Of a DNA stretch of 64,000 bases, positions 566 through 62,497 are shown piece after piece. The stretch is from an uncultured Methanotrichaceae archaeon (GTDB lineage: Archaea; Halobacteriota; Methanosarcinia; Methanotrichales; Methanotrichaceae). The stretch lies in assembly GCA_964462795.1 (NCBI GenBank), contig CAYWZG010000001.1, positions 3,197 through 67,196 on the forward strand. Reading direction: 5' to 3'. The stretch's first letter is position 1. Every line of letters starts with the position of its first letter. The notes below the pieces were generated by a model that had not been told where the DNA came from, did not search any database, and worked only from the letters and a program-made list of their open reading frames with translations. Both the position numbers and the translations under genes were made by a program.

Positions 566-694
566 TATAGTGTTTAATGATACCTTTCGGACAAATGTCG
601 AACTCGTAAGAGTTCGACATTTTGGCCTATTCGTGTCGTTAAACACTAATCTTTCGAGAACCGATCCGTCTCACCTAATCGGTTCTCGACTATA
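566..694 (+). repeat. Bipartite palindromic intergenic repeat, full copy (module A then module B)
   Basis: Sequence runs TATAGTGTTTAATGATACC...inner hairpin ATGTCGAACTC/GAGTTCGACAT...GTCGTTAAACACTA, then TCGAGAACCGAT...ATCGGTTCTCGACTATA. It starts 5 nt after the upstream stop codon and resembles the copies at 13472, 33984, 59544 and 62369. Confidence 0.9.
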
Positions 695-807
695 AACCAC
701 CCTAACTTGAAGATGCTTCAACTTTTTGGCAGCATCGATCCATTGCCCCCTTTCGAACGAGCCTTGAACCCTCGAAAAACGGGGGCGGTTCATTCCCCTA
801 CAAACCT

Positions 808-1869
808 TTACCACTTCTTTCGTCTCTTGATTTTGGGGACGTGTTTGGAAGCTCCGCCGAAGTAAAGAGCAATTATCAGCGTCGCGAGAATTGAGATTGT
901 GATGAAAGTCTTGAATCTTGAAGGTCGTTCCACCTTCATGAGTAGTGCAAGCTCTTCAGTTGTCTCCACTGCTTCCACTCCAATATCTTTTTGCGCTTCC
1001 TCGCCTGAAACATACCAGATCTGGCATATCAACCCCACATTCCCTGGCTCGATATCTTCCTCTACTTCTACCCAGAATTCAGTCTTCTTGGACTTCCCTG
1101 GAGCGATTTCTCCAACCACGAGAGGGTCTAAAGTTTCATCGCTCATCTTGAACCATGGCAGAGGTTCAAGCTTCGCCCTCAAATTCACGGCAGGCTCATC
1201 GCCTCTGTTTTCCAGCGTCACCTCGATCCAAGAACTATGACCTGGTGAGAGATCGCCCTGAACTTCCTTCACCACAATCCTGGGTCCTGTGACAACAGTC
1301 ACTTCCAGGGAAATGGTCTCTTGGGCTGAATCTCTCTGAAACTGGATCTCAGGATAAAGGGGATCTCCCCCCACCAGGACGTTATTTTGAACTTGGTAGC
1401 TTAGCTCCAGAACCATTGGGTAGACCTCTGCATTGGCATCCCCATCGATTCGCACCTGGAATTCAAGTGGACTTTTCGACACATCGCCACTCTGAAGAGA
1501 TCCGGCCAGTTGAGGTCCTGACAAGATCTCCACTTTATCGTCTTTGCTCATAAGTCTGGCCTCGATTCCCATGGCTTTAGAAGCTTCAAGTTCCATCTCA
1601 CCTTCGAGCGCCGCCAACATGTTCTCCATCTCACTTTGGGGCGACCTCTTGGGTTTCATGACGACATCGCCTAGGTTCTCAAGCTCTATCAAGACCGATC
1701 CCACACATCCTACCTTCATTTTGGAATCTACCGAAACTATCGCAAGCTTTGGACCGCCCTCCGCTTTGCAGTAGTCATCTCCAGTAGCGGTGGATACCAA
1801 AAAAACCGACACGATCGAGATGATCCAAAAAATGTGTGTCAAATCCATCTTAAGGTGGAACATTCTCAT
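808..1869 (-). CDS. Secreted cell-surface protein with a C-terminal TM anchor (S-layer/COG1361-like beta-rich domains)
   Basis: N-terminal hydrophobic signal (IFWIISIVSVFLVSTATG). Beta-rich body. C-terminal TM segment (FITISILATLIIALYFGG) followed by a basic tail, KIKRRKKW. Confidence 0.6.
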   Translation of the reverse strand: MRMFHLKMDLTHIFWIISIVSVFLVSTATGDDYCKAEGGPKLAIVSVDSKMKVGCVGSVLIELENLGDVVMKPKRSPQSEMENMLAALEGEMELEASKAMGIEARLMSKDDKVEILSGPQLAGSLQSGDVSKSPLEFQVRIDGDANAEVYPMVLELSYQVQNNVLVGGDPLYPEIQFQRDSAQETISLEVTVVTGPRIVVKEVQGDLSPGHSSWIEVTLENRGDEPAVNLRAKLEPLPWFKMSDETLDPLVVGEIAPGKSKKTEFWVEVEEDIEPGNVGLICQIWYVSGEEAQKDIGVEAVETTEELALLMKVERPSRFKTFITISILATLIIALYFGGASKHVPKIKRRKKW

Positions 1870-1904
1870 TTTTTCATCCTCAGATTGTCATTGCATGGTA
1901 ACAT

Positions 1905-1970
1905 ATTCGTATCGTTAAGCACCATTCTTGCGAGAACCAATAAGTTTCATCTAATCAGTTCTTGACTATA
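1905..1970 (+). repeat. Partial copy of the intergenic repeat (right arm of module A plus module B)
   Basis: ATTCGTATCGTTAAGCACCATTCTTGCGAGAACCAATAAG...CTAATCAGTTCTTGACTATA. Confidence 0.8.
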
Positions 1971-2474
1971 CATATTACATATCTCTACTTTCCAAGTTTT
2001 GATTTTTGCATACATTTGCCAGATTGTAAGCTGAATTAATGCTATTTTTATCGGAATATATGAGGCGTATTTAATTCCGTATGGTTCTCATATCATGCGA
2101 GACGCAAAGGTAGTTTATAAGCTGGGCGCGACCGAGGGAAAACTTGGAAAGTAGAGTTACATATTTCATCGGATCTCTCTTCCATCTGCACCAAAGATAT
2201 GAACCCGGTGGATCTTTCGGCCATCTTCTTATTCTTCGTCATAGCTTTCGCACTAGGTCCTGGCCCATTGACCTGATCGACCTCTTGGATTGGGGCACGA
2301 TCAAAGAGGGGACATATCCGCCCGATTTGTCATCTGAACTGTGAAAACATGTCCTTTGTCAGCAATCCAACAAGTATGGTTCACACCAATCCATTATCCT
2401 GGTTATTTGCCTTTTGTCCTTGCACCAAGATGTAAAGCATTTAATTTAAATTAATTATTGCGGACGCCCCTCCC

Positions 2475-2535: not shown

Positions 2536-4524
2536 ATGAATCTCATAAAACCTACATTGCTTGTGTTGGTAGCAATCGCGCTGAGTTTTGCGCCTGCTTC
2601 GGGCCAAGCTTCGATGGACCTATCCCAAACTGGAACTTCGAAGATGCCCTTCAACGTAAACCAGCCCGTGATCTACAGCATTGATCTAATGAATAGCGGG
2701 AGCTTTATGCGCTATAACGTGGTCCTGGACGTGGGTCCTGACTACAGAGATTACACAATTACGAAAAGATACACCAAAACGGTCGATCTGGACTCAGGGA
2801 CCTCCAAAGCAATAGAATTCAAGATCAATTTCAGGTCGCCAGAGCTCTGCCAGGGTGAGTTTTGTGAATGGGCCTCAGATCCCGATGATACCACCACCTG
2901 GGAAAGATGTTGGTATCGAACATCGATCACTTCCAAGATGGGTGGGAAAATGGCGCCTCTTGAGAGTTACGACGGCAACCCGACCCTCATGAAGATGATC
3001 ACGATTTACAAAGACGCAGAAGTCTCGCCGCGGATGGGCACCAATGAGACCCTCTACGACTATCAGCTCGATGTGTTCTCCAGCGCAGATGACAACGTCA
3101 CATTGCAGGTGGCGCCCGAAACTACAGGACCATGGAACGACGTCAATACGAAGAGTTACACCACTCCTGGAACTTGGCAAACTCTAAAGTGGGAGAATGT
3201 ATCACTCGACTTTGACTTCGTAAAGGCCCATTATAAGTTCGTCGGACGAAAGCAGTCTGAAACTTCCGAGGGACCATTCTGGCCCATAGACTATGAATAC
3301 GGAAACGAAAGCGTCGCCCCCAACGATGGTTTTTCAGATACGCCATTCTCCTATGGTCTCGACTTCAAAGCCAACAAAGCTCTCGATGTTGTGCTGAACG
3401 TTTGGGACATAGACCAGAACCTGTTCAGGCCGATGGGACGGATGAGCTACACGAGCGCTCCGGAATGGGATCTGTTGGAGTGGCATGACATAAAGCCAAG
3501 CGAACAGATAGGGTCTGAAGGATCATCATCTTATTACTTTAGCTTCTATTACCCAGGATCGGAAAGCCCCTTGGGCACAAGCCAGGACGACGGCGGAAAA
3601 GTCTATCTCGGCCCGAGTATAATTCTGATAAAGTTTGGCAACACGACTGTAACGCCAGATGAAGGTAGCACCATCGCCCAGTACACTTACGGCGTCCAAG
3701 TCGATACAGGCCTTCCATGTTGCGACATTGAACTTCAGACTTGTGAGCCTGGAAGTTCTATCTGGAAGTCACAGGGCATCGCCACCTACAACGGAGATAG
3801 GGAGGTCTCCTGGGACAACATAACGTTCGAATGTGGTTTGGATGGTGTGGTGAAGTACAGGTTCCTCAAGGTGGCATCCCCGCCTGCAGTATATGACGGG
3901 CCTACCCTGACAAAACAGACCATCATAGGAGATGTTACTCCTGCAAGAGGCGTCCTGCAGGTCTTCTACGACAAAAACAATCGTTACAACTACACTTACA
4001 CAGTTGGGTTTGAGAATGTGGAAGAGGACGAGCTCTGGGTCGAGCTTCTCGTAAGAGCGCCCAAGTCAACCTGGAAGACCGTGGGTGAAAAAAAGCAGTA
4101 TGACGTCTCTGTTGGAGACCTTTCTTGGACCCTCAAGCCATTCTCGGACGTTGAGTTCTTGGGGAATGCCGAGTACAAGTTCCTCGTAAACGGCGTTAAT
4201 AGCAATAAGGTATTCAAAGGGCCAGAGATCGTGGCGATGTACAAGGGCCTGAACTTTGAGAAAAACACCGGTAGCCCTAACAAATACAATTACATGGCTC
4301 AGGTGAACTCTTCAGAGAACCTTACCGTGGATCTGATCCATTCGAACGATAACGTAAACTGGGAGAACCTCAACGACGAGAAACGCTACGTTGCCAACAC
4401 CGGATGGAAAACGCTTGTATGGAGCAGCAAGCCAGGATATAGGTACTACGAAATGGACATAACGTTCTATGACGAGACCTTGACAGGCATCATACCAGAG
4501 GCAGATGTCACATTAGAGGGATGA
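2536..4524 (+). CDS. Secreted repeat-domain protein (662 aa), function unknown
   Basis: Signal peptide (LLVLVAIALSFAPASGQA). At least four tandem modules of about 85-100 aa. Many N-x-S/T sequons. The stop overlaps the next start (ATGA at 4521-4524). Confidence 0.8.
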   Translation: MNLIKPTLLVLVAIALSFAPASGQASMDLSQTGTSKMPFNVNQPVIYSIDLMNSGSFMRYNVVLDVGPDYRDYTITKRYTKTVDLDSGTSKAIEFKINFRSPELCQGEFCEWASDPDDTTTWERCWYRTSITSKMGGKMAPLESYDGNPTLMKMITIYKDAEVSPRMGTNETLYDYQLDVFSSADDNVTLQVAPETTGPWNDVNTKSYTTPGTWQTLKWENVSLDFDFVKAHYKFVGRKQSETSEGPFWPIDYEYGNESVAPNDGFSDTPFSYGLDFKANKALDVVLNVWDIDQNLFRPMGRMSYTSAPEWDLLEWHDIKPSEQIGSEGSSSYYFSFYYPGSESPLGTSQDDGGKVYLGPSIILIKFGNTTVTPDEGSTIAQYTYGVQVDTGLPCCDIELQTCEPGSSIWKSQGIATYNGDREVSWDNITFECGLDGVVKYRFLKVASPPAVYDGPTLTKQTIIGDVTPARGVLQVFYDKNNRYNYTYTVGFENVEEDELWVELLVRAPKSTWKTVGEKKQYDVSVGDLSWTLKPFSDVEFLGNAEYKFLVNGVNSNKVFKGPEIVAMYKGLNFEKNTGSPNKYNYMAQVNSSENLTVDLIHSNDNVNWENLNDEKRYVANTGWKTLVWSSKPGYRYYEMDITFYDETLTGIIPEADVTLEG

Positions 4525-5939
4525 ACGTGAAATCCTTAACATTTATTTTAGTTGCTATGTGCCTCATCAACTGCGCTCTTTGTGCTGAGGGACCACCGCC
4601 AAATAATGGCGGCGATTCTAGCAGCAGTCACGGAGGCAAGAAGATCGTGAAACTGGATCTAGACGATCTCGTAGGAAACTTTGAGAAATGGAAGAAAGAA
4701 GATCCAAAGCAGTTCGATTATATGAAAAAACTGCTTCACATACCCTTTGAACCTTCAGGGAATTACAGTACGCCAACGGTCTTGATATATTATCCTTATA
4801 ACAACACCAACATCACCCGAAACGAGAAGCTCAAAATGATTGCTTGGGTTAAAAATGACAACCCAATCGAGGTGAGATCTAACATATACCTCCAATTGGA
4901 GGCAAAAGGCCCAGGCGAAAAGAACTTCAGCGCGGTGAGTTCGCAAAGGGTCGTACTTTCCAACGAGTACAGCGAAGATAGCAACGCCAGCATGAGAGAT
5001 TGGTCTGACATCACGCCATTCCTCGATTCAAAAGAGACCGGGAACGTATCTTTTAGGATATGGTTCAACGACATGCACCGCACATATTACACCAACACCA
5101 TGTACAACAAATCTTACCGCTCAGGCGATTTTTACAGCGAGCTGAACCTGAACCTGATCAACACGCCACCTGAGATTGATGAGGATTGCATCAAGGTCTC
5201 GCCGGACCAGGCAAGGTACAACGATCCCATAAAGTACGAGGCATGTTTCTTCGATTCGGAAGGGGACATGGTGAACGTGACGCTCCACGTCTTCGATGAG
5301 TTGGGCAACGAGCATAAGAACGCAACCCAGATAATTAAATCCGGGAAAAACGTGACATTTACCGCGAGCGAATACGGATTCTTTGGGGAAGAAGATGCAG
5401 GAAAGAACTTCACATACAGTTATTCATACGACGATGGGCTCAACGGCAGCGTAACGAAGACCATGCCGGGGCCAAGCCTCCTATCGTCTCCAAAAATATA
5501 CACCTCCAACCAAAATGTGACAGCAGAGGATAATAACCAGTACTGGTGGCAAAGCTACACGTTCAGCATCAAGGTGAAGAATCCTGAAGTGAATAACTTG
5601 AGGATCGATCTTTACACCGACACGCCAGCTCATGGTGGAAAACATCAAGTGTCAAAGTGTATCAACGCCTCTAAAGAGTCTGAAGAAGCAGAGGACGTGA
5701 GCTTCACTCTCAAACCCTTCGAGGTTTCAGATGCTGGCCAGCCCTTTACATATTACTTTACTTATTCTGCACCTGATCAAGCCTCTAGATCGGAATCTGA
5801 CCATGAAGCAGGGGGCGTCATCAACCCCAGGTTGGTGAAGTATCCGATACATTCGGGCGTGATGGTGGCAAACCTTCTTTTCATCTTGCTCATCTCCCTT
5901 GTGGCAGGCGTCGTGATCGAGAGGAGGTTGTATAGATGA
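4521..5939 (+). CDS. Secreted repeat-domain protein with a C-terminal TM anchor (472 aa), function unknown
   Basis: Signal peptide (LTFILVAMCLINCALCAEG). Very many N-x-S/T sequons. C-terminal TM (VMVANLLFILLISLVAGVVI) plus ERRLYR. ATGA overlaps at both ends. Confidence 0.8.
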   Translation: MNVKSLTFILVAMCLINCALCAEGPPPNNGGDSSSSHGGKKIVKLDLDDLVGNFEKWKKEDPKQFDYMKKLLHIPFEPSGNYSTPTVLIYYPYNNTNITRNEKLKMIAWVKNDNPIEVRSNIYLQLEAKGPGEKNFSAVSSQRVVLSNEYSEDSNASMRDWSDITPFLDSKETGNVSFRIWFNDMHRTYYTNTMYNKSYRSGDFYSELNLNLINTPPEIDEDCIKVSPDQARYNDPIKYEACFFDSEGDMVNVTLHVFDELGNEHKNATQIIKSGKNVTFTASEYGFFGEEDAGKNFTYSYSYDDGLNGSVTKTMPGPSLLSSPKIYTSNQNVTAEDNNQYWWQSYTFSIKVKNPEVNNLRIDLYTDTPAHGGKHQVSKCINASKESEEAEDVSFTLKPFEVSDAGQPFTYYFTYSAPDQASRSESDHEAGGVINPRLVKYPIHSGVMVANLLFILLISLVAGVVIERRLYR

Positions 5940-6631
5940 ACGCAATCGCCGTGAACGTAACTGCAGCGTCTCCGATTTCGTTGGTGGATATTCCACCTAC
6001 AGACGTGCTGTCGAACTTTTTATCAGGGCCTCTCGCCAGCATATCTTCCAACGGGTTCTTGGGAGTGGGCCTCTTCGCCTTCATTCTGGCCTTGGGATTG
6101 GTATTGCATAAATTGAACATGATGAGGACCTATAAGCGGGTGGTCTCAACTTCAGATGGGCTTGAGATATCTGAAGAGAGCCTCAGTGAGGAGATGTTCT
6201 CTCGTCAGGGTTCCAACTTCAATGCCGCTGCTGTGGGCGCCTGGATTTTCCTGTTCGTTGCCTTCGCCTACTTTTACTTCTTAACACCAAGCTTGATCCC
6301 TAAGTACAACTATTTCCAGGTGCCTTCTCTTGCCTCAAGCCCCATAGGGTTCTTCCTATTCGGATTTCTTGTGTTGTTGCTGACCGGCACGGCTTCGGCT
6401 TTTCTTCCAAGGGTGTTCTACAGTTATTACCAAGTATCGAAGAATGAAAAGATGGCCATAATGCTCACAATCCCGCTCCTGGCAGTCTCCATAATAATAT
6501 CGGTTTATCTAGGTACAATATGCCCTGCACAGGAGGTCAACCTGAGGACTGTGGCCTTTTTTGCCCTTTTCGTATCTCAGATCGCGTTGTTGTGGCCGGT
6601 TTACCTTGACACCTTGGAGGGAGTTCGATGA
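5936..6631 (+). CDS. Polytopic membrane protein (about 5 TM, 231 aa), function unknown
   Basis: Five hydrophobic segments of about 20 aa. ATGA overlaps with both neighbours. Confidence 0.75.
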   Translation: MNAIAVNVTAASPISLVDIPPTDVLSNFLSGPLASISSNGFLGVGLFAFILALGLVLHKLNMMRTYKRVVSTSDGLEISEESLSEEMFSRQGSNFNAAAVGAWIFLFVAFAYFYFLTPSLIPKYNYFQVPSLASSPIGFFLFGFLVLLLTGTASAFLPRVFYSYYQVSKNEKMAIMLTIPLLAVSIIISVYLGTICPAQEVNLRTVAFFALFVSQIALLWPVYLDTLEGVR

Positions 6632-8166
6632 GACTTTGTATCGTGGGAATTGGAGGATGTGGCGGACACCTGGCAGAACATTTCCTCAAGAACGAGGACG
6701 TCACCGTATTGAAGAAATCTCTGGGCCGTCACGTGTCATTCGGTAGCGTAAAAGGGCTATGGCTCGAAGCTGACGTCCAAGAAACCAACAACCAAGATTT
6801 CTTTGGGTCTATTGAAAGAGGCAAGTATCCTGGCTATTTCATACCACACGACGTCATAAAATCCGATTCCAAGGCGTCAAGAGCGGTCCAGGATATCTAC
6901 GGGTACGATATAAAGAAACAGGGGTTCATGAGGCAGGCCGAGTTCTTGAAAGCAGTCTTTGAAATATTCGACACTGACGAAGTGGTAAAGAGCGCGGCCC
7001 TTTCTGAATGCGAGTCGACAAACCCAATCTTGAGGAGGGCATGGGACCATATCCGCCCCTGTACCACCCTTGCCGGTGCTGAGAATAACAACAAGGCATC
7101 TGAACTGTGCGATGGGATACTCTTCTTGATATCTCTTGGCGGAGGGACTGGAACTGGTTTTGTCAACCCGATCACAGGATACATCCGAGGCGAGAGAAGC
7201 GCATATCCTGCATTTGTCCTGGCGGTGCTAACCGAGGAGGGAGTAGATCCGCAGCAGAGGGCTAAAGAGGCAAAGAGGGATATGGGCGCCATGATCTCTC
7301 TTTACGACCTCATCACCAAGAAGTCTGGGATAGGGGTTGATGGCGTGATTTTGGTGGATAACCAAATAATGATAGAGAAGTTTGGTCAGGATTATCCAGC
7401 TATCGATCAGTACATCTACCAGGCCATGAAGCCTTTTGTGGCGGGACACCATTATCCAGGAGAAGATCCGCCAAGCTTGGCCATGCGAGAGAAGTTCCTC
7501 GAAGGTTTGCCGAGCCCTCCGATTCTGGTTCCATGTTACTACCGAATGAAACGGCGCAACGATCCTGAAGACGAGTTAGTGAAAAGAGCGCTCAGCGAAG
7601 AAGGTCAGCTCTTTAGGTGTGACCCAAAGATGGCGGAGAGAGCTTATGTCTTTACGAGGGGGTTCATGGAATTTGACGAGATCGTGAACGCCGTTGCCAA
7701 ATACACTGGTCTACCTAAAGATAGGATCGAGCCCTGGAGGAAGCTTGGTGAGAATAAGTGGGACGAGGTCCTGATATTGCTCAGAAACCCTTACGGTGGC
7801 AAAGATAAGGCATATGAGGACAAACTCACGTTGGAGTACCGCCTCCACAGGACTTTGAGGATGGCTCTCAAGTACATGGACGATCCTGAGAGCAAATTGA
7901 TTCCGGAAGGCATGCCCGATAAGACCAGAGACGCTCTGGATGATTACTTTTATGGCAAAACTGGAATCAGGAATGAGTTCAAGCAGTCTTTAACCAGGAT
8001 CGAGAAGGGCGAAAAGCCCTTTTTCCTCCATGAAAGAAACATATTCGAGGATAAATCCGAACAGGGTTTTGGAAACAATACGAATCATGAAACCCTTCCG
8101 GATGACGACAAGATACGCAAGATCGTGATGGAAGAGATGGCCAAGATATTGGGTGAGCGGGCTTAA
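6628..8166 (+). CDS. Divergent tubulin/FtsZ-superfamily GTPase (512 aa)
   Basis: N-terminal IVGIGGCGG (T1-like GxGxxG, aa 5-13). GGGTGTG at aa 171-177 (nt 7138-7158) matches the tubulin signature [SAG]GGTG[SA]G. VDNQ lies downstream. No signal peptide or TM segment. Confidence 0.7.
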   Translation: MRLCIVGIGGCGGHLAEHFLKNEDVTVLKKSLGRHVSFGSVKGLWLEADVQETNNQDFFGSIERGKYPGYFIPHDVIKSDSKASRAVQDIYGYDIKKQGFMRQAEFLKAVFEIFDTDEVVKSAALSECESTNPILRRAWDHIRPCTTLAGAENNNKASELCDGILFLISLGGGTGTGFVNPITGYIRGERSAYPAFVLAVLTEEGVDPQQRAKEAKRDMGAMISLYDLITKKSGIGVDGVILVDNQIMIEKFGQDYPAIDQYIYQAMKPFVAGHHYPGEDPPSLAMREKFLEGLPSPPILVPCYYRMKRRNDPEDELVKRALSEEGQLFRCDPKMAERAYVFTRGFMEFDEIVNAVAKYTGLPKDRIEPWRKLGENKWDEVLILLRNPYGGKDKAYEDKLTLEYRLHRTLRMALKYMDDPESKLIPEGMPDKTRDALDDYFYGKTGIRNEFKQSLTRIEKGEKPFFLHERNIFEDKSEQGFGNNTNHETLPDDDKIRKIVMEEMAKILGERA

Positions 8167-12735: not shown

Positions 12736-13287
12736 ATGCCTCACATGTGCACTCGATGTAAAAACGTTTTTGACGATGGCGTCGACATATTGAGAGGGTG
12801 TCCTGTTTGCGGGCAGAAGAAATTTCTCTTCGTCAAGTCCGACGCCCAAATAAAGGAGGTCAAGAGAAAACTGAATGCGTCTGAGATTGGTGGTCCTTAC
12901 GAGCCCTGGCCCGAAAACGATGACAAACTCTCCGATATCTTAAAATCCCCTGGAAAAAAGAGAACTGATCCCGACAGAGTCCATCCTGACAATATCCATC
13001 CTGACAATATCCATCTTGACAATGTTCCTCAAAGCAAATTGGCCGGCGATGTGCGTGCAAAAGAGGGGGATATCCCCATGGGTGAAACACGTCAGTCGAC
13101 GAAAATATTGGAGAGCGTTCGGCAAAACGATGACGATATGGTAGAAAGCATCAGAATGTCTGAGCCTGGCACCTACGAACTCAACCTTCCCACCCTCTTC
13201 GAACGCGACGAACTGGTGATGTCCGTGAAAGACGGGACCTATTTGATAGATCTCTCCTCTGCCTTCAAGAAGTACAAAAAAGATTGA
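12736..13287 (+). CDS. Zn-ribbon protein (DUF2072-like) with an internal pentapeptide tandem repeat
   Basis: N-terminal CTRC...CPVC zinc ribbon. A 4 x 15-bp tandem repeat at 12967-13026 encodes DPDRV-HPDNI-HPDNI-HLDNV. Confidence 0.6.
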   Translation: MPHMCTRCKNVFDDGVDILRGCPVCGQKKFLFVKSDAQIKEVKRKLNASEIGGPYEPWPENDDKLSDILKSPGKKRTDPDRVHPDNIHPDNIHLDNVPQSKLAGDVRAKEGDIPMGETRQSTKILESVRQNDDDMVESIRMSEPGTYELNLPTLFERDELVMSVKDGTYLIDLSSAFKKYKKD

Positions 13288-13440: not shown

Positions 13441-13471
13441 CTCAGTTTTCACCTTTACACCATCCTATGTG

Positions 13472-13613
13472 TAGTGTTTAACGATACCTTTCGGACAACT
13501 GTCGAACTCTCATGAGTTCGACATTTTGACCTATTCGTATCGTTAAGCACTAATCTTTCGAGAACCAACTAGTTTCATCTAACCGGTCCCCGACTATAAT
13601 TGGTTCTCGAACA
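13472..13613 (+). repeat. Intergenic repeat, full copy (A+B) with a displaced extra right arm of module B
   Basis: TAGTGTTTAACGATACCTTTCGGACAACTGTCGAACTCTCATGAGTTCGACA...GTATCGTTAAGCACTAATCTTTCGAGAACCAACTAG...GACTATAATTGGTTCTCGA. Confidence 0.9.
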
Positions 13614-13656
13614 TATTTTTAATCGAATATGCATGCCGCGGGTGGGGTAATTGGAC

Positions 13657-14043
13657 CTATTTCCCGCCAAAGATCATTATCGACGGCGTGAAAACCGTCG
13701 GATTGCCCACTGAGAAGGAGGGCGTCTGGATACTGGTTCTGGAATAAGTTCTGTTGCTCACCGAGATCGAGAACGGCGGAGTGTAGGTCACGGGGGTGGG
13801 CCCGCCCAGGGCGAGGACTTCCTTTGAGATGGAAGTGGTGCCAAAGCTGCCGCCCAAAGTTCTGACGTCGACTGGCTCTATGCCGCTTGTGGTGGTCTTT
13901 GGAGAGTACTTGATCTCTATAGGCGTAACGTGGGACGATGCAACTGCTTTCTTGCCCTTGGTGCTCAGGTCGATCGGATCTTCGGCGGCGACCAAACCTA
14001 TCAAGAGCATAGAGGCGACTATGGCTATCAGAATGAGTTTCAT
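13657..14043 (-). CDS. Small secreted protein (128 aa), function unknown
   Basis: Signal peptide MKLILIAIVASMLLIGLVAAE. S/T/P-rich mature part. I prefer this over the overlapping 13619..14047 frame, which is Arg/His-rich and has no signal. Confidence 0.55.
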   Translation of the reverse strand: MKLILIAIVASMLLIGLVAAEDPIDLSTKGKKAVASSHVTPIEIKYSPKTTTSGIEPVDVRTLGGSFGTTSISKEVLALGGPTPVTYTPPFSISVSNRTYSRTSIQTPSFSVGNPTVFTPSIMIFGGK

Positions 14044-14121
14044 ACATTAACCTCCCATTTATTCCTTAGCGTGACTTTCGAGTTTTTACCATTTATTCCT
14101 TTTGATGAACTTGATTCGAGC

Positions 14122-14213
14122 TATAGTGCTTAAAGATACCTTTCGGATAAGTGTCGAACTCTCATGAGTTCAACATTTTTAAAATTATCCCAAAGGTACT
14201 GTCAAACACTATA
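14122..14213 (+). repeat. Intergenic repeat, module A only (diverged right arm)
   Basis: TATAGTGCTTAAAGATACCTTTCGGATAAGTGTCGAACTCTCATGAGTTCAACA...CCCAAAGGTACTGTCAAACACTATA. Confidence 0.8.
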
Positions 14214-33983: not shown

Positions 33984-34111
33984 TATAGCGCTTAACGATA
34001 CCTTTCGGACAAATCTCTAACTCGTGATAGTTTGAGATTTGTCCCATTCGTATCGTTAAGCACTAATCTTTCGAGAACCGATTAGTCTCATCTGATCGGT
34101 TCTTGACTATA
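33984..34111 (+). repeat. Intergenic repeat, full copy (A+B)
   Basis: TATAGCGCTTAACGATACCTTTCGGACAAATCTCTAACTCGTGATAGTTTGAGATTT...GTATCGTTAAGCACTAATCTTTCGAGAACCGATTAG...GATCGGTTCTTGACTATA. It begins 18 nt after the giant gene's stop. Confidence 0.9.
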
Positions 34112-35780: not shown

Positions 35781-35823
35781 TGGCGAGGGGCCAGTTAGGT
35801 TCCTTCAATTGGTTCTCGACTAT
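35781..35823 (+). repeat. Solitary, degenerate module B of the intergenic repeat
   Basis: GGCGAGGGGCCAGTTAGGTTCCTTCAATTGGTTCTCGACTAT aligns with the reverse complement of 59544-59590 (module B of the 59544 copy). Confidence 0.6.
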
Positions 35824-36400
35824 CCCTCCCGCTTGATTGTTCGCAAGGTTGCGGCCACGATTATCTCGCATCAGGGACCCCGCCTGCAAGGCTGCGCTGC
35901 TTGCACCCTAATCTGGCTCAGACACCTCCTTTTGATCTGCCCCATTTTCAGATCCACATTATGAAAGACTGGTCGCGAGATCGAAATCTTCCAGCATCAC
36001 CACGACCATTGAGGTCGCCAGCCGGATCGACTCGCCTTACTGCTGGCTCGGATGGTGATCAGTGGCGTCTCGTCAGAAGAAGAATACGTAAGCGAGCAAC
36101 AATACCACGATCTCCACGAAAAGGATGGCAGAGAGGACGGTGTACCTTCTATGTAGATGTGGACTCTGGCGGAAAGCCTCTCGCAGGGCCTCGTTTCGCT
36201 TCATTCCCTCATTGGTAATATACAAATAATATATAAACGTTGCTGAGTGGTTTTGGCCCATCCATGAATCTCTCGGGTGAAGCAATGACGAGATGATTGT
36301 GTCCTCCAATCAAAGATGCGTAATAAGTAACGATAATTATAGTCGAGATTTGCCCGCCGATAACTTATAACGTCACCACCTCCTGTGACCGGCAGGTGGT

Positions 36401-39007: not shown

Positions 39008-39690
39008 CGGGTAGCCAGCGGGTCCAAAGCGCCGTTAGCGCTGAACGCTTCGATCCGCTCAATACAGGTCGGGCATTTGCCGCAGGGCTTTTGGCCGCCT
39101 TCGTAGCAGCTCCAGGTAAGCTCGTAGGGCACGTTTAGCTTAAGCCCTAGCCGAACTACGTCGGATTTTTCCAATCCCTCAAACGGTGCCACTAACCTGA
39201 CCGGAGACCAAGCTGAACTTCTCTCGATCGTAATCTTTGCAGCATCGATGAACTCCGACCTGCAATCTGGATAGACCAATTGGTCATTCTTGTGAGCGCC
39301 GTAATATAGGTCGGGGATCTGATGGGCTTCGCAGTAGGTAGCTCCGACAGAGAGGAATATCAGGTTCCGTCCAGGAACCACCGTCGATGGGGACGCCTCT
39401 TTAGAATAGGGACCTTTTGGAACCTGTACAGAGTCGTCGAGAAGGCTGTGGCCGGTTCTTGATATAAGGGAGAAGATGGATGAGAGATCTACAATCCTGT
39501 GGACGATTCTTGTGCCACAATCTTCTTTTGTTCGCAGAATTACGGCCTTTGCAGCCACTAACTCTCTCTTGTGGCGCTGTCCATAATCGAAGCTCAAGGC
39601 GTGAATTTCTTCGTAATCCTCTTGGATTAGCTTGTAAAGGAGGGTAGAAGAATCAAGGCCGCCAGAGAATATCAGGGTTGCAATTTTCAT
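39004..39690 (-). CDS. queC: 7-cyano-7-deazaguanine synthase
   Basis: IFSGGLDSS PP-loop. DYGQRH. C-terminal zinc Cys cluster CYEGGQKPCGKCPTCIERIEAF. Confidence 0.9.
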   Translation of the reverse strand: MKIATLIFSGGLDSSTLLYKLIQEDYEEIHALSFDYGQRHKRELVAAKAVILRTKEDCGTRIVHRIVDLSSIFSLISRTGHSLLDDSVQVPKGPYSKEASPSTVVPGRNLIFLSVGATYCEAHQIPDLYYGAHKNDQLVYPDCRSEFIDAAKITIERSSAWSPVRLVAPFEGLEKSDVVRLGLKLNVPYELTWSCYEGGQKPCGKCPTCIERIEAFSANGALDPLATR

Positions 39691-40040
39691 ATCAACTGCC
39701 CCTCAGAAATATTGTCTCTTCTGTTTTGGTCGCGAAATATTCTTCTGATGCTATTTGGATCGTAAACATATGATCCCGCGAGGATTGGGCTAATATTTGA
39801 TAAGGCAATCGGCTGCTTTGATCAAGTCATCCAAAACTGTTGATTTGATTAGCTGAGTTAGGCAAGATTAAGTTGTACAGTTATAAGATTACTAGTATGT
39901 AGCCATTGGTCATCAGTTAAGACAAAAATCGCAATGTAGCAATGATCTTGGTAGCAAATCCGATGAGATCGACCGGATTAAAAAAGGTATATCGGACCCG
40001 TTTCCGATTTCTCAAAGATAAGAGCTTCCGTGTTGCGGAA

Positions 40041-40105
40041 GTATAATAGTCGAGAACCAATTAGATGAAACTAATTGGTTCTCGCCAGAATAGCGTTTAA
40101 CGATA
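40041..40105 (-). repeat. Partial intergenic repeat, reverse orientation (module B plus proximal arm of module A)
   Basis: TATAATAGTCGAGAACCAATTAGATGAAACTAATTGGTTCTCGCCAGAATAGCGTTTAACGATAC. Confidence 0.85.
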
Positions 40106-40351
40106 CTTAAAGAAAAAAGAGCAAATTGAATCTTTGATGATCATGGTCATCGCACTTTTGGTATTCAACTATACAAAACGAAAATTGCGTGAGAATTTAG
40201 AAAACCTACAAAAAGGCCTACAATGAAATGGCATTTCTTCCCCTTCACTGGTGTTACAAAAGTGCTCGCCAAAACACACTAATTTTGTGGATAAATAAAA
40301 ATATGCCAGGCGTTCTGCCTGGCTCATATCATAGAACAATATCGCTTCACG

Positions 40352-41011
40352 TCACTTTCTGACCAGAGATATCGTCGCAGCGGGTGACTCTATGTATGCC
40401 GTCGGGAACTCACAAGCAGATTCGACAAACGCGCCGTTTTCGTAGGCCTTTGTAACCACCAATGTGAGTGTGTGCGCGCCAAAGGTGTACGAGGTCCAGT
40501 CGATTTCAATCACTTCATCGGTTGTTCCAACCTCGGTTCCGTCAACCGACCAGATGAAGGTGAAAGCTGCCGTGGTAGTATCTTCTCCTGTGTAGATATA
40601 AGTCTTGACAGGTGAATCCTCACACACGTCAAAGTCGCCATCTACACCACAGACTGGCGGCGCCAAGACGTTCATGTACATCACGGTCTCGCCGATACAA
40701 CCCTTCCCATCAGTTACCAGCAGACGGACGTTGATGGTCTTTCCAGGTTCGATATCTTTAACCTCGAAATCAAGATCTTTATTCGTGTTCTCCGTGATTG
40801 TGGTCCCATCAACGTCAACGGTCCACAGGTAATCATACTTCACATCGCCCTCTAAGTAATCAAGCTGGATCGGTTCAGGACCTTGAAGGGTGATATTTTC
40901 ACCTGGCGCTACGTCTCCAAGGGATTCTCCTTCCTGTGCATAAACTACAGGCACTAATGCGGAAAACACAATTAGTGCCATAAAGGCGGCTATAATCCTA
41001 CATATAGACAA
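40352..41011 (-). CDS. Secreted Ig/PKD-like protein (219 aa), paralogous to the C-terminus of the 26581-28014 product
   Basis: Signal peptide. NVLAPPVCGVDGDFDVCEDSPVKTYIYTGEDTTTAAFTFIWSVDGTEVG aligns with NVLSNPFCQIEGPGSICENSHVATFYYVGEDTSMADFGFIWSIDGVVVG. Confidence 0.75.
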   Translation of the reverse strand: MSICRIIAAFMALIVFSALVPVVYAQEGESLGDVAPGENITLQGPEPIQLDYLEGDVKYDYLWTVDVDGTTITENTNKDLDFEVKDIEPGKTINVRLLVTDGKGCIGETVMYMNVLAPPVCGVDGDFDVCEDSPVKTYIYTGEDTTTAAFTFIWSVDGTEVGTTDEVIEIDWTSYTFGAHTLTLVVTKAYENGAFVESACEFPTAYIESPAATISLVRK

Positions 41012-41558
41012 TTTTCACACCCCATAACTTCATATTCCGATTGGATCTAACAGGACTATCAGCTGTAGTACTGGAAAACTCGTCGTGAGATCTCGCTGGC
41101 CATATCCAGAAGTAAAAACTAATGCGTTCCCCCATCGAGAGCGATCCCTCTTACTTGGAAATGTGTATTCCAATCTCGAATCCCTGGGATGAACATTGCC
41201 AAAGCAGCATGTCCTTTTGATCCAGACGGTGTTATGTATGTTAATCACTAATGATATATTATCATTTCGATTTACATTAATATTCATATCATTTAATTTA
41301 TTAAACATATTATGCAGATATTTTAAATCACCCTCACATATTGAATAAGATTTGATCCTGTGCTGAGCAGGATTAGGGCCCGCGAAGAAATAACCTTGTC
41401 ATATGAATGATTCGCAATTATTATACTGAATCCGCTTCATATCGGTTTCGTATAATGGCCGTACACGATTATGTGCAAGTTATTTCTCTACGAGCCCTAA
41501 GGGAAAAAATTATATGTTATCATAAGTATTATGAGGGTTACAGGAGCTACATATCAAT

Positions 41559-41664
41559 ATATAATCGAGAACCAATTAGAAACTAATTGGTTCTCACCAG
41601 AATAGTGCTATAACGATACGAATAGGTCAGATCTCAAACTCTTACGTTTTTGATATTTGTCCTA
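41559..41664 (-). repeat. Intergenic repeat, reverse orientation, distal arm of module A truncated
   Basis: TATAATCGAGAACCAATTAGAAACTAATTGGTTCTCACCAGAATAGTGCTATAACGATACGAATAGGTCAGATCTCAAACTCTTACG... Confidence 0.85.
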
Positions 41665-41735
41665 CCCGTGCCATCGAACGGTTCTTGACCGTAGTTTCTG
41701 CAGATAGATTCGTAAGGCAAGAAGGCGTTACATAT

Positions 41736-42653
41736 ATGATACATAAAAAATTATTATTTATAGGATTCGTGATATGCATTGTACCTTTGATCCTTTCCGG
41801 TGGTGTGTTAGGATCGAACGAATCAGTTGTCCTTAACGTTATGATAGATGCCGAGCTTTGTCCATGGGACTTGAACGTGACCCCTGAAGAAAAGGTAGGG
41901 ATAGAAGCAAGGTCTTTGATAGATATGCTCAACAAGATTGATCCCGACGAGCTGAACGTCACAATTTATTCTACAAGCGATTTCGTCTCAGCAAGAAGCG
42001 CAAACGCATCTTACAAGCTCTATGCAACCAGGATAGGTGCCAAAGATAACCACGAGATGGCATTCCATGGAATGACCACTGACGAGCTTCTCGGAACTAT
42101 GACCTATGGTGTGCAGTATCCGCTCCTCATAAAAGCAAAACGGCTCGTCGAAGAGGCCTACATATGCGAGGGCAGGAAGATAGAAGCAAAGGGCTTTAGG
42201 CCTCAGCGATTCAATCAGAGTAAGACCACCTACAAAATCCTTGACAAGATGGGCTTTGAATACGATTCAGGGTATCAGGCAGGTCTGATCTACCTTCCAG
42301 ACCACAAGAACGATACCTGGCCCTACCCAATGGAAGGATATGGATTCTATGCAGTTCCTGTGAGCACTCATGAATTCTCTGATGAGCTGGTACCCATATC
42401 CGACCGGTTCGCAAAAGAGGAGCTTGGAATCAACGGATCTCAGTGGTACGACCTTCTCATTGCAGAGTTTGAGGAGTGTTCCAGAAAAGGCGATCCCATG
42501 GTGGTTATATTTCACAATTTCGTATACGGAACCGACGAAGAGTACCAGAACGCGTATACAGAATTCGTAAATTATGCCATCTCAAAAGGGGCTGACTTTG
42601 TCTCAACCATGAAGCTTGTCGAAATAATGAAAACCGAAAACGAAGCGTCCTAA
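41736..42653 (+). CDS. Secreted polysaccharide-deacetylase-like protein, stand-alone paralogue of the C-terminal domain of the 1977-aa protein
   Basis: I moved the start to MIHKKLLFIGFVICIVPLILSGG (signal peptide). The motifs HEMAFHG, KGFRPQRF...GFEYDSGY and VVIFHNF are present. An 86-aa block is identical to the giant protein. Confidence 0.8.
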   Translation: MIHKKLLFIGFVICIVPLILSGGVLGSNESVVLNVMIDAELCPWDLNVTPEEKVGIEARSLIDMLNKIDPDELNVTIYSTSDFVSARSANASYKLYATRIGAKDNHEMAFHGMTTDELLGTMTYGVQYPLLIKAKRLVEEAYICEGRKIEAKGFRPQRFNQSKTTYKILDKMGFEYDSGYQAGLIYLPDHKNDTWPYPMEGYGFYAVPVSTHEFSDELVPISDRFAKEELGINGSQWYDLLIAEFEECSRKGDPMVVIFHNFVYGTDEEYQNAYTEFVNYAISKGADFVSTMKLVEIMKTENEAS

Positions 42654-53470: not shown

Positions 53471-53556
53471 ATAAGCACTTTAACGATAAGATCCGACCAA
53501 TTCGGAAACTCGTAAGATTTTCCGAATTGTCCGGAACGTATCGCCAAGCACTATAA
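53471..53556 (+). repeat. Intergenic repeat, module A only, with a different but still complementary inner stem
   Basis: AAGCACTTTAACGATAAG...CAATTCGGAAA-CTCGTAAGAT-TTTCCGAATTG...GTATCGCCAAGCACTATA. Lies 18 nt downstream of the cdhB stop. Confidence 0.8.
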
Positions 53557-57868: not shown

Positions 57869-57894
57869 TATTTTTCTAAATTCGTTTTTAGAGT

Positions 57895-59019: not shown

Positions 59020-59199
59020 GCCTGGTGAAATGCGTTGAAATTACAAATTCCTTTTGCAGATTTGTCGCACGGGTATTGCCACCACCTCGGGCCACGAAAC
59101 CGTTCTCATGAAAAGGGTCTGGCCATAGGACCGAAACATGTCAATTTTCATTACTTCGGGAGCACGGAGGGTCACGGATACCCCAACTTTTAGGTCGGT

Positions 59200-59492
59200 C
59201 TCGTTAACTCATGGAGTTAACGGGAGTTAGCGACGATAAGTCACTAACAGGAGGAAGTGAACCCTCGCCCGTTTTTCGTGTTCCTTTAAATCGGTAAAAC
59301 TTTGGAGACTGTTCAGAGGAAACCGAAAGTAGAGTTTCAATCGTGCAGATCTGGGAAATCTGGGCAACGAAGACTCAAAGATTTCTGAAATCCGGAAAAA
59401 CGGGCGTGCGGCCCCGAAGCATATCTCATCCTTTAGGGCGGGGTGGGCCGCACGCAATTTGATTTTTCGGGCATGATCCCTCGGATCATGTG
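59200..59492. ncRNA. Candidate structured non-coding RNA or leader (strand undetermined)
   Basis: Perfect hairpins at 59202-59222 (9 bp) and 59472-59490 (8 bp). An 11-bp GC-rich stem, 59404-59414 with 59445-59455. A 12-bp long-range pairing, 59266-59277 with 59395-59406. T-runs follow the GC stem on both strands. No convincing ORF. Confidence 0.3.
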
Positions 59493-59543
59493 CGTTTCAA
59501 ATAAAGATGCCCTTGAAGAACTGAAACCAATTTTTTAGGATTT

Positions 59544-59671
59544 TGTAGTCGAGAACCAATTGGATGAGACTAACTGGTTTTCGCCAGAATAGTGTTTAAC
59601 GATATGAATAGGTCAAATTTCAAACTCTTACAAGTTTGAAATTTGTCTGAAAGGTATCGTTAAGCACTATT
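59544..59671 (-). repeat. Intergenic repeat, full copy, reverse orientation (B then A)
   Basis: TGTAGTCGAGAACCAATTGG...CTGGTTTTCGCCAGAATAGTGTTTAACGATATGAATAGGTCAAATTTCAAACTCTTACAAGTTTGAAATTTGTCTGAAAGGTATCGTTAAGCACTAT. Confidence 0.9.
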
Positions 59672-59736
59672 ATGTCACACTCATCGTATCCCAAAATTAG
59701 ATATTGGTTGAATGGACATTACATAACTAGCAGTGG

Positions 59737-60075: not shown

Positions 60076-60136
60076 ACCGCCTCTCTTTTCATTTTATATT
60101 ACAGAATAGTGAGCATAAGATCAAGGAGATATCAGC

Positions 60137-60916
60137 ATGTTCAAAAATCACACTTATAACCGCATCGCAGGAATCAGTCTCTTACTGACCTCATTCCTGC
60201 TCGTTGGTTTTGCACAAGAGGCAGACATTGTGGTAAGTCCTGATGGCGAATACACTTCGATTCAGGCCGCAATTGACTTCGCGATCACTGGAGACATAAT
60301 CGAGGTCCAAAGTGGAATCTACGAAGAGAACGTGGACGTCAACAAGCCCATCACGCTCAGAGGGGCTGATACGGGGTCCTGGAAACCGGTGGTAGACGCG
60401 AAAGGTAACGGAACTGCCATAACCATATCTACAAATGGTGCCGTGCTGGAAAATTTCTGCGTCATCAATGCCGGGAAACACCCCAATGCCGGAATAAAGG
60501 TCACATCTGACAATAGCATCATATCCAACTGCAACGTCTGGAACAACGGACATTGGGGCGTATATTTGAACCGCGCAAAGGAGTGCCTGGTCACAGGATG
60601 CTTGATCAGCAACAATGGCAACGATGGGATTCTAGTATACCGCTCCAACAAGAACGTCCTCAGATACAACACGATCAGCAACAATGGCGATGGCGGCATC
60701 CAGTTGCTCGAATCCGACCAAAACTCCCTTGTGAGCAACTCTGCAGACATCAACATGGGTAGCGGCATCCTTCTCGACAATTCCCAGAACAATTTGGTCC
60801 GAGGCAATGCCATAACCAACAACATATTTGGAATCCAGCTCCGGAATTCCAGCACAGAGGGCGTTGGCCCCAACCTCTTCGTAAACAACACCCAAGATAC
60901 TCGCGTGGAGAGTTGA
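60137..60916 (+). CDS. Secreted right-handed parallel beta-helix repeat protein (NosD-like)
   Basis: Signal peptide. Repeated PbH1-type units (ISNCNVWNNGHWGVYL, VTGCLISNNGNDGILV, LRYNTISNNGDGGIQL, VRGNAITNNIFGIQL). Confidence 0.75.
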   Translation: MFKNHTYNRIAGISLLLTSFLLVGFAQEADIVVSPDGEYTSIQAAIDFAITGDIIEVQSGIYEENVDVNKPITLRGADTGSWKPVVDAKGNGTAITISTNGAVLENFCVINAGKHPNAGIKVTSDNSIISNCNVWNNGHWGVYLNRAKECLVTGCLISNNGNDGILVYRSNKNVLRYNTISNNGDGGIQLLESDQNSLVSNSADINMGSGILLDNSQNNLVRGNAITNNIFGIQLRNSSTEGVGPNLFVNNTQDTRVES

Positions 60917-61021
60917 ATAGACCACCCCTTACCCCCCATTTTTCCCTTCAAATCTTGAAGGGCGAGCGATTGAGGCGGTTTGGACGTGTGAATTTAAACG
61001 CGAAGATTTGAATAATATTAA

Positions 61022-62272
61022 ATGGCCGAGACGGATAAGCTCTTCCTTCGAAACCAATTTAACCTACGGAACCCACGTTCTCCTCCAGACATGCAAGATT
61101 ATTCCGTCAATCAGTTTTTGGAACTTGCCGGGACTCCCAAGATCGATATCGAGGTGTGTGACGTCACGCTCAGAGATGGCGAACAGATGCCAGGAGTCGT
61201 CTTCAGGCCCGACGAGAAGATAGACATCGCAGTCAGGCTGGACGAAGTTGGGGTCGAGATAATCGAAGCTGGCTTTCCGGTGGTCTCCGAAGCCGAGAAG
61301 AGGGCAGTAATGGACGTCTCCAAATTGGGCCTGAACGCCAAGATTTCGGTCCTTTCAAGGTCGGTCAAGAAAGATGTGGACGCAGCTTTAGACTGTGACG
61401 TGGACATGGTAAGCGTCTTTATAGCAACTTCTGATCTACACCTGAAATACAAGCTCCACATGAGCTGCGACGAGGCCGTAAGCTGCGCCTATGATACTCT
61501 GGAATATGCCAAGGACCACGGACTTATCGTCAGGTTCTCGGCGGAAGATGCCACCAGGACCGATTTTGGGCTTTTGAAGACGTTCTACAAAAAGGCCGAA
61601 GATTACGGTGCCGATTACGTGAGCATCGCCGACACAATTGGCATATTGAATCCCAGGACCACCTACTACATGGTAAGCGAGATCAAAAAGTTGGTGAATA
61701 TCCCTATCTGTATGCACTGTCACGATGACTTGGGCCTTGCGCTGGCAAACACGCTCGCTGCAGCAGAGGCCGGAGCCAAACAGCTTCACACCACAGTAAA
61801 TGGGATCGGTGAAAGGAGCGGGAACACCCCTCTTGAGGAGCTGATGGTGGCGCTAAAGGTTCATTATGGAATTGATCGGTACAACACCACAAAACTCTCG
61901 TCGCTTTCCCACCTCGTTCAGAGCTATTCTGGAGTTATCGTCTCCAAGAATAAGGCTGTAGTGGGTGAAAACGCCTTTGCTCATGAATCAGGCATCCACG
62001 TAGCTGCGGTTTTAGAAGAGCCCAGAACTTACGAGCTTTATTCTCCGGAGATGGTGGGGTCTGGCAGGAAGATCGTAATCGGGAAACATACCGGCGCCAA
62101 GGCTCTGAAGTACATCACCAAGAAGATGGGGTATAACCTGGAGAACGACGATATATGTCATCTCGCAGAGAAGGTGAAAAGGTGCAGCGAGTTCAAGCGC
62201 CCAATATCTTGTGAAGATCTGCGACGGCTGATCCACGACCTTGATATCGAGATTGTCTATCCAGACCTGTAA
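61022..62272 (+). CDS. 2-isopropylmalate/homocitrate/citramalate synthase family enzyme, short form without the LeuA regulatory domain
   Basis: DVTLRDGEQ and MHCHDDLGLALANTLAAAEAGA (HxH metal site). About 390 aa from the probable start MQDYS, so there is no LeuA-dimer R-domain. Confidence 0.8.
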   Translation: MAETDKLFLRNQFNLRNPRSPPDMQDYSVNQFLELAGTPKIDIEVCDVTLRDGEQMPGVVFRPDEKIDIAVRLDEVGVEIIEAGFPVVSEAEKRAVMDVSKLGLNAKISVLSRSVKKDVDAALDCDVDMVSVFIATSDLHLKYKLHMSCDEAVSCAYDTLEYAKDHGLIVRFSAEDATRTDFGLLKTFYKKAEDYGADYVSIADTIGILNPRTTYYMVSEIKKLVNIPICMHCHDDLGLALANTLAAAEAGAKQLHTTVNGIGERSGNTPLEELMVALKVHYGIDRYNTTKLSSLSHLVQSYSGVIVSKNKAVVGENAFAHESGIHVAAVLEEPRTYELYSPEMVGSGRKIVIGKHTGAKALKYITKKMGYNLENDDICHLAEKVKRCSEFKRPISCEDLRRLIHDLDIEIVYPDL

Positions 62273-62368
62273 ATCACCCATCATTAAAGTGACGGGCATT
62301 TGACGTGCCCGGGTTTACCAGATCATCAATTGGGAGATAATATAATTGATAATCGATAGGAACGAATT

Positions 62369-62497
62369 TATAGTCAAGAACCGATTAGATAACACTAATC
62401 AGTTCTCACCAGAATAGTGCTTAACGATACGAATAGGCCAAATCTCAAACTCTTGCGAGTTAGAGATTTAGCTCAAAGGTATCGTTAAGCACTATAG
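62369..62497 (-). repeat. Intergenic repeat, full copy, reverse orientation
   Basis: TATAGTCAAGAACCGATTAG...CTAATCAGTTCTCACCAGAATAGTGCTTAACGATACGAATAGGCCAAATCTCAAACTCTTGCGAGTTAGAGATTT...AAAGGTATCGTTAAGCACTATAG. Confidence 0.9.

Follow-up and report, generated by a model that had tools for sequence, protein, structure and literature searches.

A stretch of 64,000 nucleotides from an uncultured Methanotrichaceae archaeon (contig CAYWZG010000001.1, positions 3,197 to 67,196; hereafter the window) carries a family of palindromic repeats. The mobile unit is 124 bp long, reads 5'-TAG...CTA-3' and consists of hairpin A, a linker and hairpin B, in this order. We conclude, with a probability of about 85 %, that these repeats are a non-autonomous DNA transposon, i.e., a MITE (miniature inverted-repeat transposable element), specific to a Methanothrix/Methanotrichaceae lineage. 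The classification as a MITE, taken by itself, is firmer still. The unit inserts at TA, the TA is duplicated on both sides, and an AAT-TA-ATT context is preferred. Targets are intergenic DNA, other mobile or RNA genes and the TA inside the element itself. A first-pass annotation of the window had listed a non-autonomous transposon among several options; it is this option which is supported by the TA duplication, the self-nesting and the presence or absence of copies between relatives.

The repeat family is real. A search of the window by nhmmer, using a profile built from the five full copies, recovered all loci of the first-pass annotation: five full copies, one near-full copy, two 3' fragments, two units consisting of hairpin A only and one weak hairpin B fragment. 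The full copies have E values of 1e-39 to 1e-43. The core 16-mer GTATCGTTAARCACTA occurs 14 times in the window at two mismatches or fewer, against 0.03 occurrences expected from dinucleotide-preserving shuffles. The coordinates assigned earlier were accurate save for one copy, listed as 13472-13613, which ends at 13598; the rest is flank.

Nor is the similarity confined to the window. We compared it with related genome and metagenome contigs, denoted by L-numbers. When these contigs (931 kb) were searched together with the window, nhmmer returned 215 non-overlapping matches, of which 145 are full copies, 55 are partial, 12 consist of A only and 3 of B only. Among the full copies, 138 have distinct flanks; the mean pairwise identity among copies is 84 %. 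The window encodes OapC, CdhA/CdhB and a type II 3-dehydroquinate synthase (DHQS-II), and its CdhA falls, at 90 % identity or more, into a cluster of proteins assigned by name to Methanothrix sp., M. harundinacea and Candidatus Methanocrinis. A scan with the core 16-mer through one genome per species matched many contigs from the uncultured Methanotrichaceae metagenome-assembled genomes (MAGs) CAZXBV01 and CAYQFP01 and from Methanosaeta sp. UBA204; bacteria were also matched, by chance. A metagenome scan with a 20-mer yielded at least 80 loci with at least 118 matching stretches. Several related contigs stop inside a copy, as a high-copy repeat which breaks short-read assemblies would cause. 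The viral contigs of IMG/VR, the plasmids of PLSDB and the GenBank phages contain no match to the element.

Insertion at TA and self-nesting

Three independent pairs of filled and empty sites each differ by the element plus one additional TA. Site (a) is located in a HEARO RNA (IscB omega RNA, RF02033; window 62269-62619, plus strand), the host of copy 62369-62496. The filled site reads GAATT-TA[TAGTC...CACTA]TA-GTTACC; in the intact paralogue (L112:4-255) it is empty, GAATT-TA-GTTACC. Site (b) is in the same conserved sequence. It is empty, GAAC-TA-ACAT, in L077, L134, L112 and the window, and is filled only in L110:4550-4677 (GAAC-TA[TAGTG...GACTA]TA-ACAT). Site (c) is within the old A-type unit downstream of cdhB. 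Here the window is empty (CACTT-TA-ACGAT, the TA at 53481-53482) and the orthologous L161:3991-4120 is filled (CACTT-TA[TAGTC...CACTA]TA-ACGAT). The junctions at all three sites fit a 2-bp duplication and exclude a 3-bp duplication. For the copies starting at 33984 and 59544 no clean empty site was found in L200/L202 and L161, respectively; these relatives are rearranged and the alignments break near the element.

The same signature is evident throughout the family. TA is present on both sides of 117 of the 138 copies, and of 128 copies measured, 102 have exactly 124 bp between their TA flanks. The element starts with TAGT in 122 and ends with ACTA in 121 copies. The alignment similarity stops directly outside ...TA-TAGTG and GACTA-TA.... 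The sequences TATAGT and ACTATA, previously taken for short terminal inverted repeats, are actually the duplicated TA target plus the element ends TAG... and ...CTA. A logo of the flanks is symmetric and palindromic: A(0.50) A(0.57) T(0.51)-TA-A(0.68) T(0.58) T(0.45), roughly AAT-TA-ATT.

The element also inserts into itself. In several contigs, runs of a 27-nt unit precede runs of a 99-nt unit; the former unit corresponds to the element's 5' end, the latter to its remainder. Tandem Repeats Finder reports periods of exactly 27 and 99. A variant present in 20 of 138 copies, CGGAT-TA-ATCTC, has a TA at element positions 26-27. Insertion and duplication at this TA predict periods of 25+2 = 27 and 97+2 = 99 as well as the junctions CGGAT-TA-TAGTG and GACTA-TA-ATCTC. 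Both junctions and both periods are observed. A clean nest is L158:3353-3620, in which the 5' part of an outer copy is followed by TA, a complete inner copy, TA and the 3' part of the outer copy. Self-insertion yields nested copies which resemble tandem arrays. An origin of the arrays primarily by slippage between short direct repeats was dropped because nested insertion at TA predicts the junctions and both periods exactly.

Finally, copies come and go between close relatives. L161 is colinear with window positions 49.8-60.0 kb at 86-94 % identity, and L200/L201 are about 92 % identical to the window. These relatives and the window differ at several sites in the presence or absence of copies.

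Anatomy, mobilization and alternative explanations

Hairpin A comprises about 81 bp. Its outer stem is near-perfect and 16 bp long (TAGTGYTTAACGATAC / GTATCGTTAARCACTA). Inside it come an internal loop of 5+5 nt and then an inner stem of about 17 bp, which mostly carries a GNRA loop. A linker of 5-6 nt leads to hairpin B with a stem of 15 bp and a loop of 6 nt. The two-hairpin structure proposed earlier is borne out by folding: copy 33984..34111 folds at -62.9 kcal/mol (z = -13), its opposite strand at -60.6 kcal/mol (z = -10.5). The linkers define subfamilies (TTCTGGC in 79 of the 138 copies, TTCTGGT in 14, ATCTTTC in 12); the association of linker and orientation suspected from the window was an accident of sampling.

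The two hairpins also occur separately. A-only units of about 81 bp have near-perfect inverted ends of 16 bp and mostly TA on both sides, and a B-only unit with TA flanks is located at L051:1305-1364. In five copies hairpin A has the opposite orientation with respect to B (its loop reads TTGC, not GCAA), as recombination between the inverted arms of A would produce. The outer ends of A and B have TAGTnnnnAACnA in common. Thus, we favor the reading that two palindromic mini-elements fused to give the 124-bp element, which transposes with one outer end of each. A fragment of 42 nt, TATAGTCGAGAACCRATTAGATGAWACGTAYGTGTTTAGCTC, recurs at L155:4323, L089:5076, L118:12881 and L109:3329. It consists of the end of hairpin B followed by different sequence and may represent a subfamily with a deletion or else another small element with the same end.

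The element is non-coding and too short for a transposase. It would be mobilized in trans by a DDE transposase which cuts and joins at TA and recognizes the conserved ends TAGTnnnnAACnA. We favor, over other enzymes, one of the IS630/Tc1-mariner-type family as the probable agent, because the TA duplication is exactly 2 bp long, the target is palindromic and there is precedent in RUP, the Correia elements and the SM1 MITE of Sulfolobus. The hairpins would persist since only copies with intact paired ends continue to transpose, possibly assisted by hairpin-templated repair. Copies subsequently decay to fragments, and they coincide with indel edges when strains are compared; any effects on neighboring genes would be secondary.

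Several observations weigh against this view. No autonomous insertion sequence (IS) with matching ends was found in the window, its 11.6-kb extensions or the 931 kb of related contigs. Within these contigs, A- or B-type ends bound no open reading frame (ORF) save ordinary genes between two copies, and the multi-copy ORF families contain no transposase family; they comprise surface proteins, AAA ATPases, NosD and similar proteins, and one IscB. A screen of the 931 kb for ORFs flanked by inverted repeats retrieved MITE-bracketed genes and one IS5-family element, L147:3808-4862, which was rejected as partner, its ends TGCTGTGTTGACTAA being unrelated and its duplication 8 bp long. The terminal inverted repeats of the full element are perfect over 4 bp only (TAGT/ACTA) and match at 8 of 13 positions beyond, which is weak for a classic MITE. 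The unit counts in the arrays are unequal (LLR, LRR, L4R2, L6R3), probably due to later slippage or recombination between direct repeats or to errors in the assembly of short-read metagenomes. Because the element itself served as the seed in finding the related contigs, copy densities outside the window are biased; the unbiased density is 11 loci in the 64-kb window and none in another 11.6 kb of the same genome. Lastly, base changes on both sides of a pair number 140 versus 65.5 +/- 10.4 in shuffles, i.e., they are compensatory, and a GNRA loop is present in hairpin A of 96 of 138 copies. A simple model with two binding sites does not need this, which leaves room for the recognition of a single strand, DNA or RNA.

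Further candidates for a transposase were examined. As the first-pass annotation had stated, none is visible: domain searches identified no transposase among the window ORFs, nor was one found in the 11.6 kb of flanking genome. The window ORFs 808-1869, 13619-14047 and 40352-41011, considered as transposases bracketed by copies, have only weak Ig-like/CARDB-type matches. A PHROG screen covered 225 ORFs of 260-470 aa, best 25 families only. Fragments which retain only the 5' or only the 3' part were considered as ends of a longer IS; all of them are in short intergenic spacers and are thus decayed copies. The IS5-family element, an observation in its own right, is intact, encodes a DDE transposase of 313 aa, has 15-bp ends and a duplication GCGTCATA, and adjoins a MITE copy.

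The conservation of the hairpins calls for an explanation. Pairing is kept in 91.9 % of hairpin cells, and the strongest compensatory cases are in hairpin B, where one pair is GC in 59 and AT in 53 copies and another AT in 86 and GC in 38. Selection for transposition-competent ends together with hairpin-templated correction of quasi-palindromes would suffice to account for this. That the hairpins are selected beyond such needs, either by co-option of copies or because a TA-specific enzyme reads folded single strands, appears improbable to us; to our knowledge, transposition by an enzyme of the latter kind has not yet been described in archaea.

A rival proposal would view the repeats as a PATE, i.e., an IS200/IS605 derivative moved as single-stranded DNA by a Y1 (HUH) TnpA via subterminal hairpins. 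One TA would then be the target, the other the 3' end of the element itself, and no duplication would take place. Formally, a repeat of only 2 nt fits a genuine duplication as well as a target TA next to a terminal TA. Stable hairpins, preserved by compensatory changes, do adjoin both ends, and the same genomes carry relics of the IS200/IS605 family, namely HEARO/IscB omega RNAs and an intact IscB (L145:3184-4413). Yet the target is symmetric around TA, as fits a dimeric DDE enzyme acting on double-stranded DNA, and does not follow an asymmetric rule of insertion 3' of a fixed target of 4-5 nt. The left and right hairpins of IS200/IS605 elements are near-identical structures of 20-25 nt, whereas hairpins A and B differ in sequence and size. 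In most cases A-only units carry perfect inverted ends of 16 bp and a TA on each side, copies are without a consistent strand bias along contigs, and no Y1 transposase was seen in the window or in the ORF families examined in related contigs. The odds of a PATE are thus very small.

Equally little credit is due to a structured RNA selected by the host, be it terminator, stabilizer, processing site or small RNA, the spread of which would be secondary. In its favor, the fold is very stable on both strands, the pair changes are compensatory, 70 % of the copies possess the GNRA loop and copies are nearer to gene ends than to gene starts. But quasi-palindrome correction can produce compensatory changes without selection, and near-identical strains differ by gains and losses of copies. 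On the canonical strand G.U mismatches exceed A.C mismatches (273 versus 155). However, much of this excess stems from a few inherited positions: two sites in hairpin A account for 95 cells, and a few wobble pairs recur in hairpin B. The excess also conflicts with orientation, since the canonical strand is antisense in 36 cases and sense in 19 where the genes on either side are co-directional. Thus, no coherent signal emerges at the RNA level. The element sequence has no T-run such as archaeal termination uses. In Rfam 15, no family matched anywhere in the window at gathering thresholds; the only sub-threshold match near a copy is HEARO.

Gene context points in the same direction. The counts for full copies, which rest on crude ORF calls, include all settings and both orientations: 26 between divergent gene starts, 20 convergent, and the co-directional ones given above. 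Elements are faced by gene starts 128 times and by gene ends 106 times; this lends no support to the terminator or RNA-stability function suggested earlier as the reason for the family's existence. Copies are nearer to gene ends than to gene starts (median 76 nt versus 130 nt, p = 2e-4), a difference that purifying selection against promoter disruption would produce. Such placement differs from that of a terminator or 3'-untranslated-region module and is as expected of selfish insertion.

The suggestion of a REP/BIME mosaic, i.e., extragenic palindromes maintained by RAYT and used by the host, e.g., for binding of DNA gyrase or IHF or for protection of mRNA 3'-ends, has the least to recommend it and is practically dismissed: A and B do occur joined, alone or inverted, and the window copies are strictly extragenic, three of them 4-19 nt after a stop codon, but REP/BIME units are RAYT-dependent, 20-40 nt long, carry a GTAG signature and cause no target duplication, whereas here the modules measure 45-81 bp, end in TAG/CTA without that signature and are accompanied by a TA duplication, gene starts adjoin copies as often as gene ends, and neither a RAYT-like gene nor an Rfam match in the window was found.

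Copies in the window and their neighborhood

The window copies are compiled in the table. The earlier statement that all copies are intergenic, several of them close to stop codons, is correct.

Table. Copies of the MITE and its fragments in the window, with nhmmer matches
Feature	Position	Strand	Match	Remarks
Full copy	566..694	+	566-696, E 1.3e-42; covariance model 147 bits	linker ATCTTTC between hairpins A and B; TA flanks 566-567 and 693-694; begins 4 nt past amidohydrolase stop codon (561)
3' fragment	1901..1970	+	E 5.7e-17; profile positions 61-130	end of hairpin A and entire hairpin B; terminates ACTA-TA
Full copy	13470..13598	+	13470-13600, E 4e-41	5' TA mutated to TG; flanked by oapC and a 142-aa ORF
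Hairpin-A-only unit	14122..14213	+	14121-14211, E 1.6e-13	TA both sides (TA-TAGTG...CACTA-TA); 3' half altered
Full copy	33984..34111	+	33984-34113, E 8.7e-43	TA on either side; 17 nt past stop codon of 1977-aa ORF
Weak hairpin-B fragment	35791..35823	+	E 0.035; E 0.004 with B-only profile	within a stretch of ~560 nt which relative L200 is without
3' fragment	40046..40106	-	E 1.4e-15; profile positions 69-129	at edge of 2.6-kb low-GC insert missing in L200/L201
Near-full copy	41560..41672	-	E 1.5e-23	~15 nt missing at 5' end; B loop shortened
Diverged A-type unit	53473..53555	not assigned	53479-53555, E 4e-08	immediately downstream of cdhB; old, diverged; inner stem sequence differs yet pairs
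Full copy	59544..59671	-	59542-59670, E 2e-39	in divergent spacer between DHQS-II gene and Fe-S assembly gene; flanks degenerate (AA / CA); borders a 534-nt stretch missing in relative L161
Full copy	62369..62496	-	62367-62497, E 2.5e-41	TA both sides; inside the HEARO RNA gene

The HEARO RNA which hosts the last copy scores 62 bits, i.e., below the gathering score of 83, in its interrupted form; the intact paralogue (L112:4-226 = L204:14569-14776) scores 96.6 bits. An insertion at the identical position, antisense, is also present in L077:728-1077, L145, L084:656-1006, L110:4742-5091 and probably L134. HEARO plus MITE thus exists in at least six loci, and the contexts differ. In L145:2782-4413 the interrupted HEARO is upstream of an intact IscB of 409 aa (RRXRR + HNH; gene L145:3184-4413). 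Either the interrupted element went on spreading or this TA is a hot spot. The double hairpin of 128 nt may be tolerated, or it may be used as an additional scaffold arm of the guide RNA. In the window the HEARO is solo and begins at the stop codon of a homocitrate-synthase-like gene. Its intact paralogue is inverted, about 2 kb beyond the end of the window, and the two HEARO copies bracket an AFOR-CooT-prefoldin-Pcc1 segment.

MITE sequences also border indels. A low-GC (41.5 %) stretch of about 2.6 kb, window 39690-42564, is not in L200/L201 and is bounded by MITE fragments. It carries two hypothetical ORFs, and in one of them the C-terminus of the 1977-aa protein has a paralogue; a 300-nt repeat (32998-33297 versus 41832-42131, 88 %) underlies this paralogy. 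Likewise, the indels at 35736-36300 (about 560 nt versus L200) and 59105-59675 (534 nt versus L161) end at MITE fragments or a full copy. The coincidence of indel edges and MITE sequence suggests that copies take part in rearrangements.

As for other neighbors, oapC, the gene of an origin-associated protein (12736-13287, plus strand), ends 182 nt upstream of copy 13470-13598; a replication origin may therefore be nearby. Directly 3' of copy 33984-34111 an ORF of 120 aa (34170-34532, plus strand), a fragment, has weak similarity to XerA/tyrosine recombinases. It is conserved in L200/L202, where the sequence upstream of it differs. An operon (2536-8166, plus strand) encodes four proteins of 662, 472, 231 and 512 aa without a Pfam family at normal thresholds. 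The last one (512 aa) has a faint Tubulin match (PF00091) in a precomputed annotation of the same genome (L207).

Significance and comparison with known elements

The family occupies about 1.7 % of the window, roughly one copy per 6-7 kb. Extrapolated to the whole genome, this density would give a count of several hundred, which for an archaeon is a heavy MITE load. The family explains assembly breaks in Methanothrix-like genomes as well as intergenic and RNA-gene differences between near-identical strains. A covariance or hidden Markov family model would aid MAG assembly, annotation and strain typing of acetate-using methanogens, which are important in the environment. The targeting of TA would point to an IS630/Tc1-mariner-type transposase which is, or recently was, active in Methanotrichaceae. 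In the self-nesting arrays, target choice has left a clean natural record.

In its behavior the element is akin to the RUP, Correia and Stowaway-type MITEs and to the SM-type MITEs of archaea. Among archaea, the SM1 MITE of Sulfolobus was reportedly related by Redder and colleagues in 2001 to ISC1048, a member of the IS630 family. It is said to be likewise small and non-autonomous and is thought to be moved in trans by the transposase of a resident IS; the relationship to IS630 implies TA targeting as in the Methanothrix element. SM1 reportedly differs in that it belongs to another phylum, bears no sequence relation and resembles the ends of its parent IS. With the Stowaway/Tc1-mariner MITEs the element shares TA duplication, an AT-rich palindromic target, strong hairpin potential and frequent nesting, yet their hosts are eukaryotic. 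The end of Tc1, TA-CAGTGCT..., matches that of the element, TA-TAGTGCT..., at 7 of 9 positions, possibly by chance. The BIMEs of E. coli are similar as modular mosaics of palindromes.

TA-flanked, hairpin-forming MITEs of bacteria are well described (PMC2229807). RUP of Streptococcus pneumoniae, attributed to IS630-Spn1, is the same in many respects: about 100-130 bp, non-coding, more than 100 intergenic copies, insertion at TA, short inverted ends and transcripts which form long stem-loops (PMC2229807). It also inserts into IS elements, as the Methanothrix element does into IscB/HEARO and its own copies (PMC2229807). The ends of RUP match an IS630-family element of the same genome, whereas the Methanothrix element has no partner in the DNA searched; further, RUP is bacterial and a single end-to-end stem-loop, the Methanothrix element archaeal with two side-by-side hairpins, and there is no sequence similarity. 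Correia/NEMIS of Neisseria agrees in TA duplication, TA termini, a size of 100-150 bp, hundreds of copies, variants with internal deletions and hairpin-forming transcripts (PMC2229807). It differs by inverted ends of 24-26 bp which pair end to end; IHF sites, promoters and RNase III processing are documented for it. The CIR of Caulobacter/Brucella resembles the element in its architecture, two long inverted repeats as two arms with a linker; CIR meets the definition of a MITE in part, lacks inverted ends, its duplication is uncertain (PMC2229807) and its mobility is unproven.

In the literature, searched also with the core sequences themselves, the family was not found described; the searches did not extend to the supplements of the large prokaryotic MITE census. 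From typical MITEs the Methanothrix element is set apart by two side-by-side hairpins and a perfect terminal inverted repeat of 4 bp. As far as we could check, the family is previously undescribed and joins the known class of TA-inserting MITEs; it does not constitute a new kind of genetic system.

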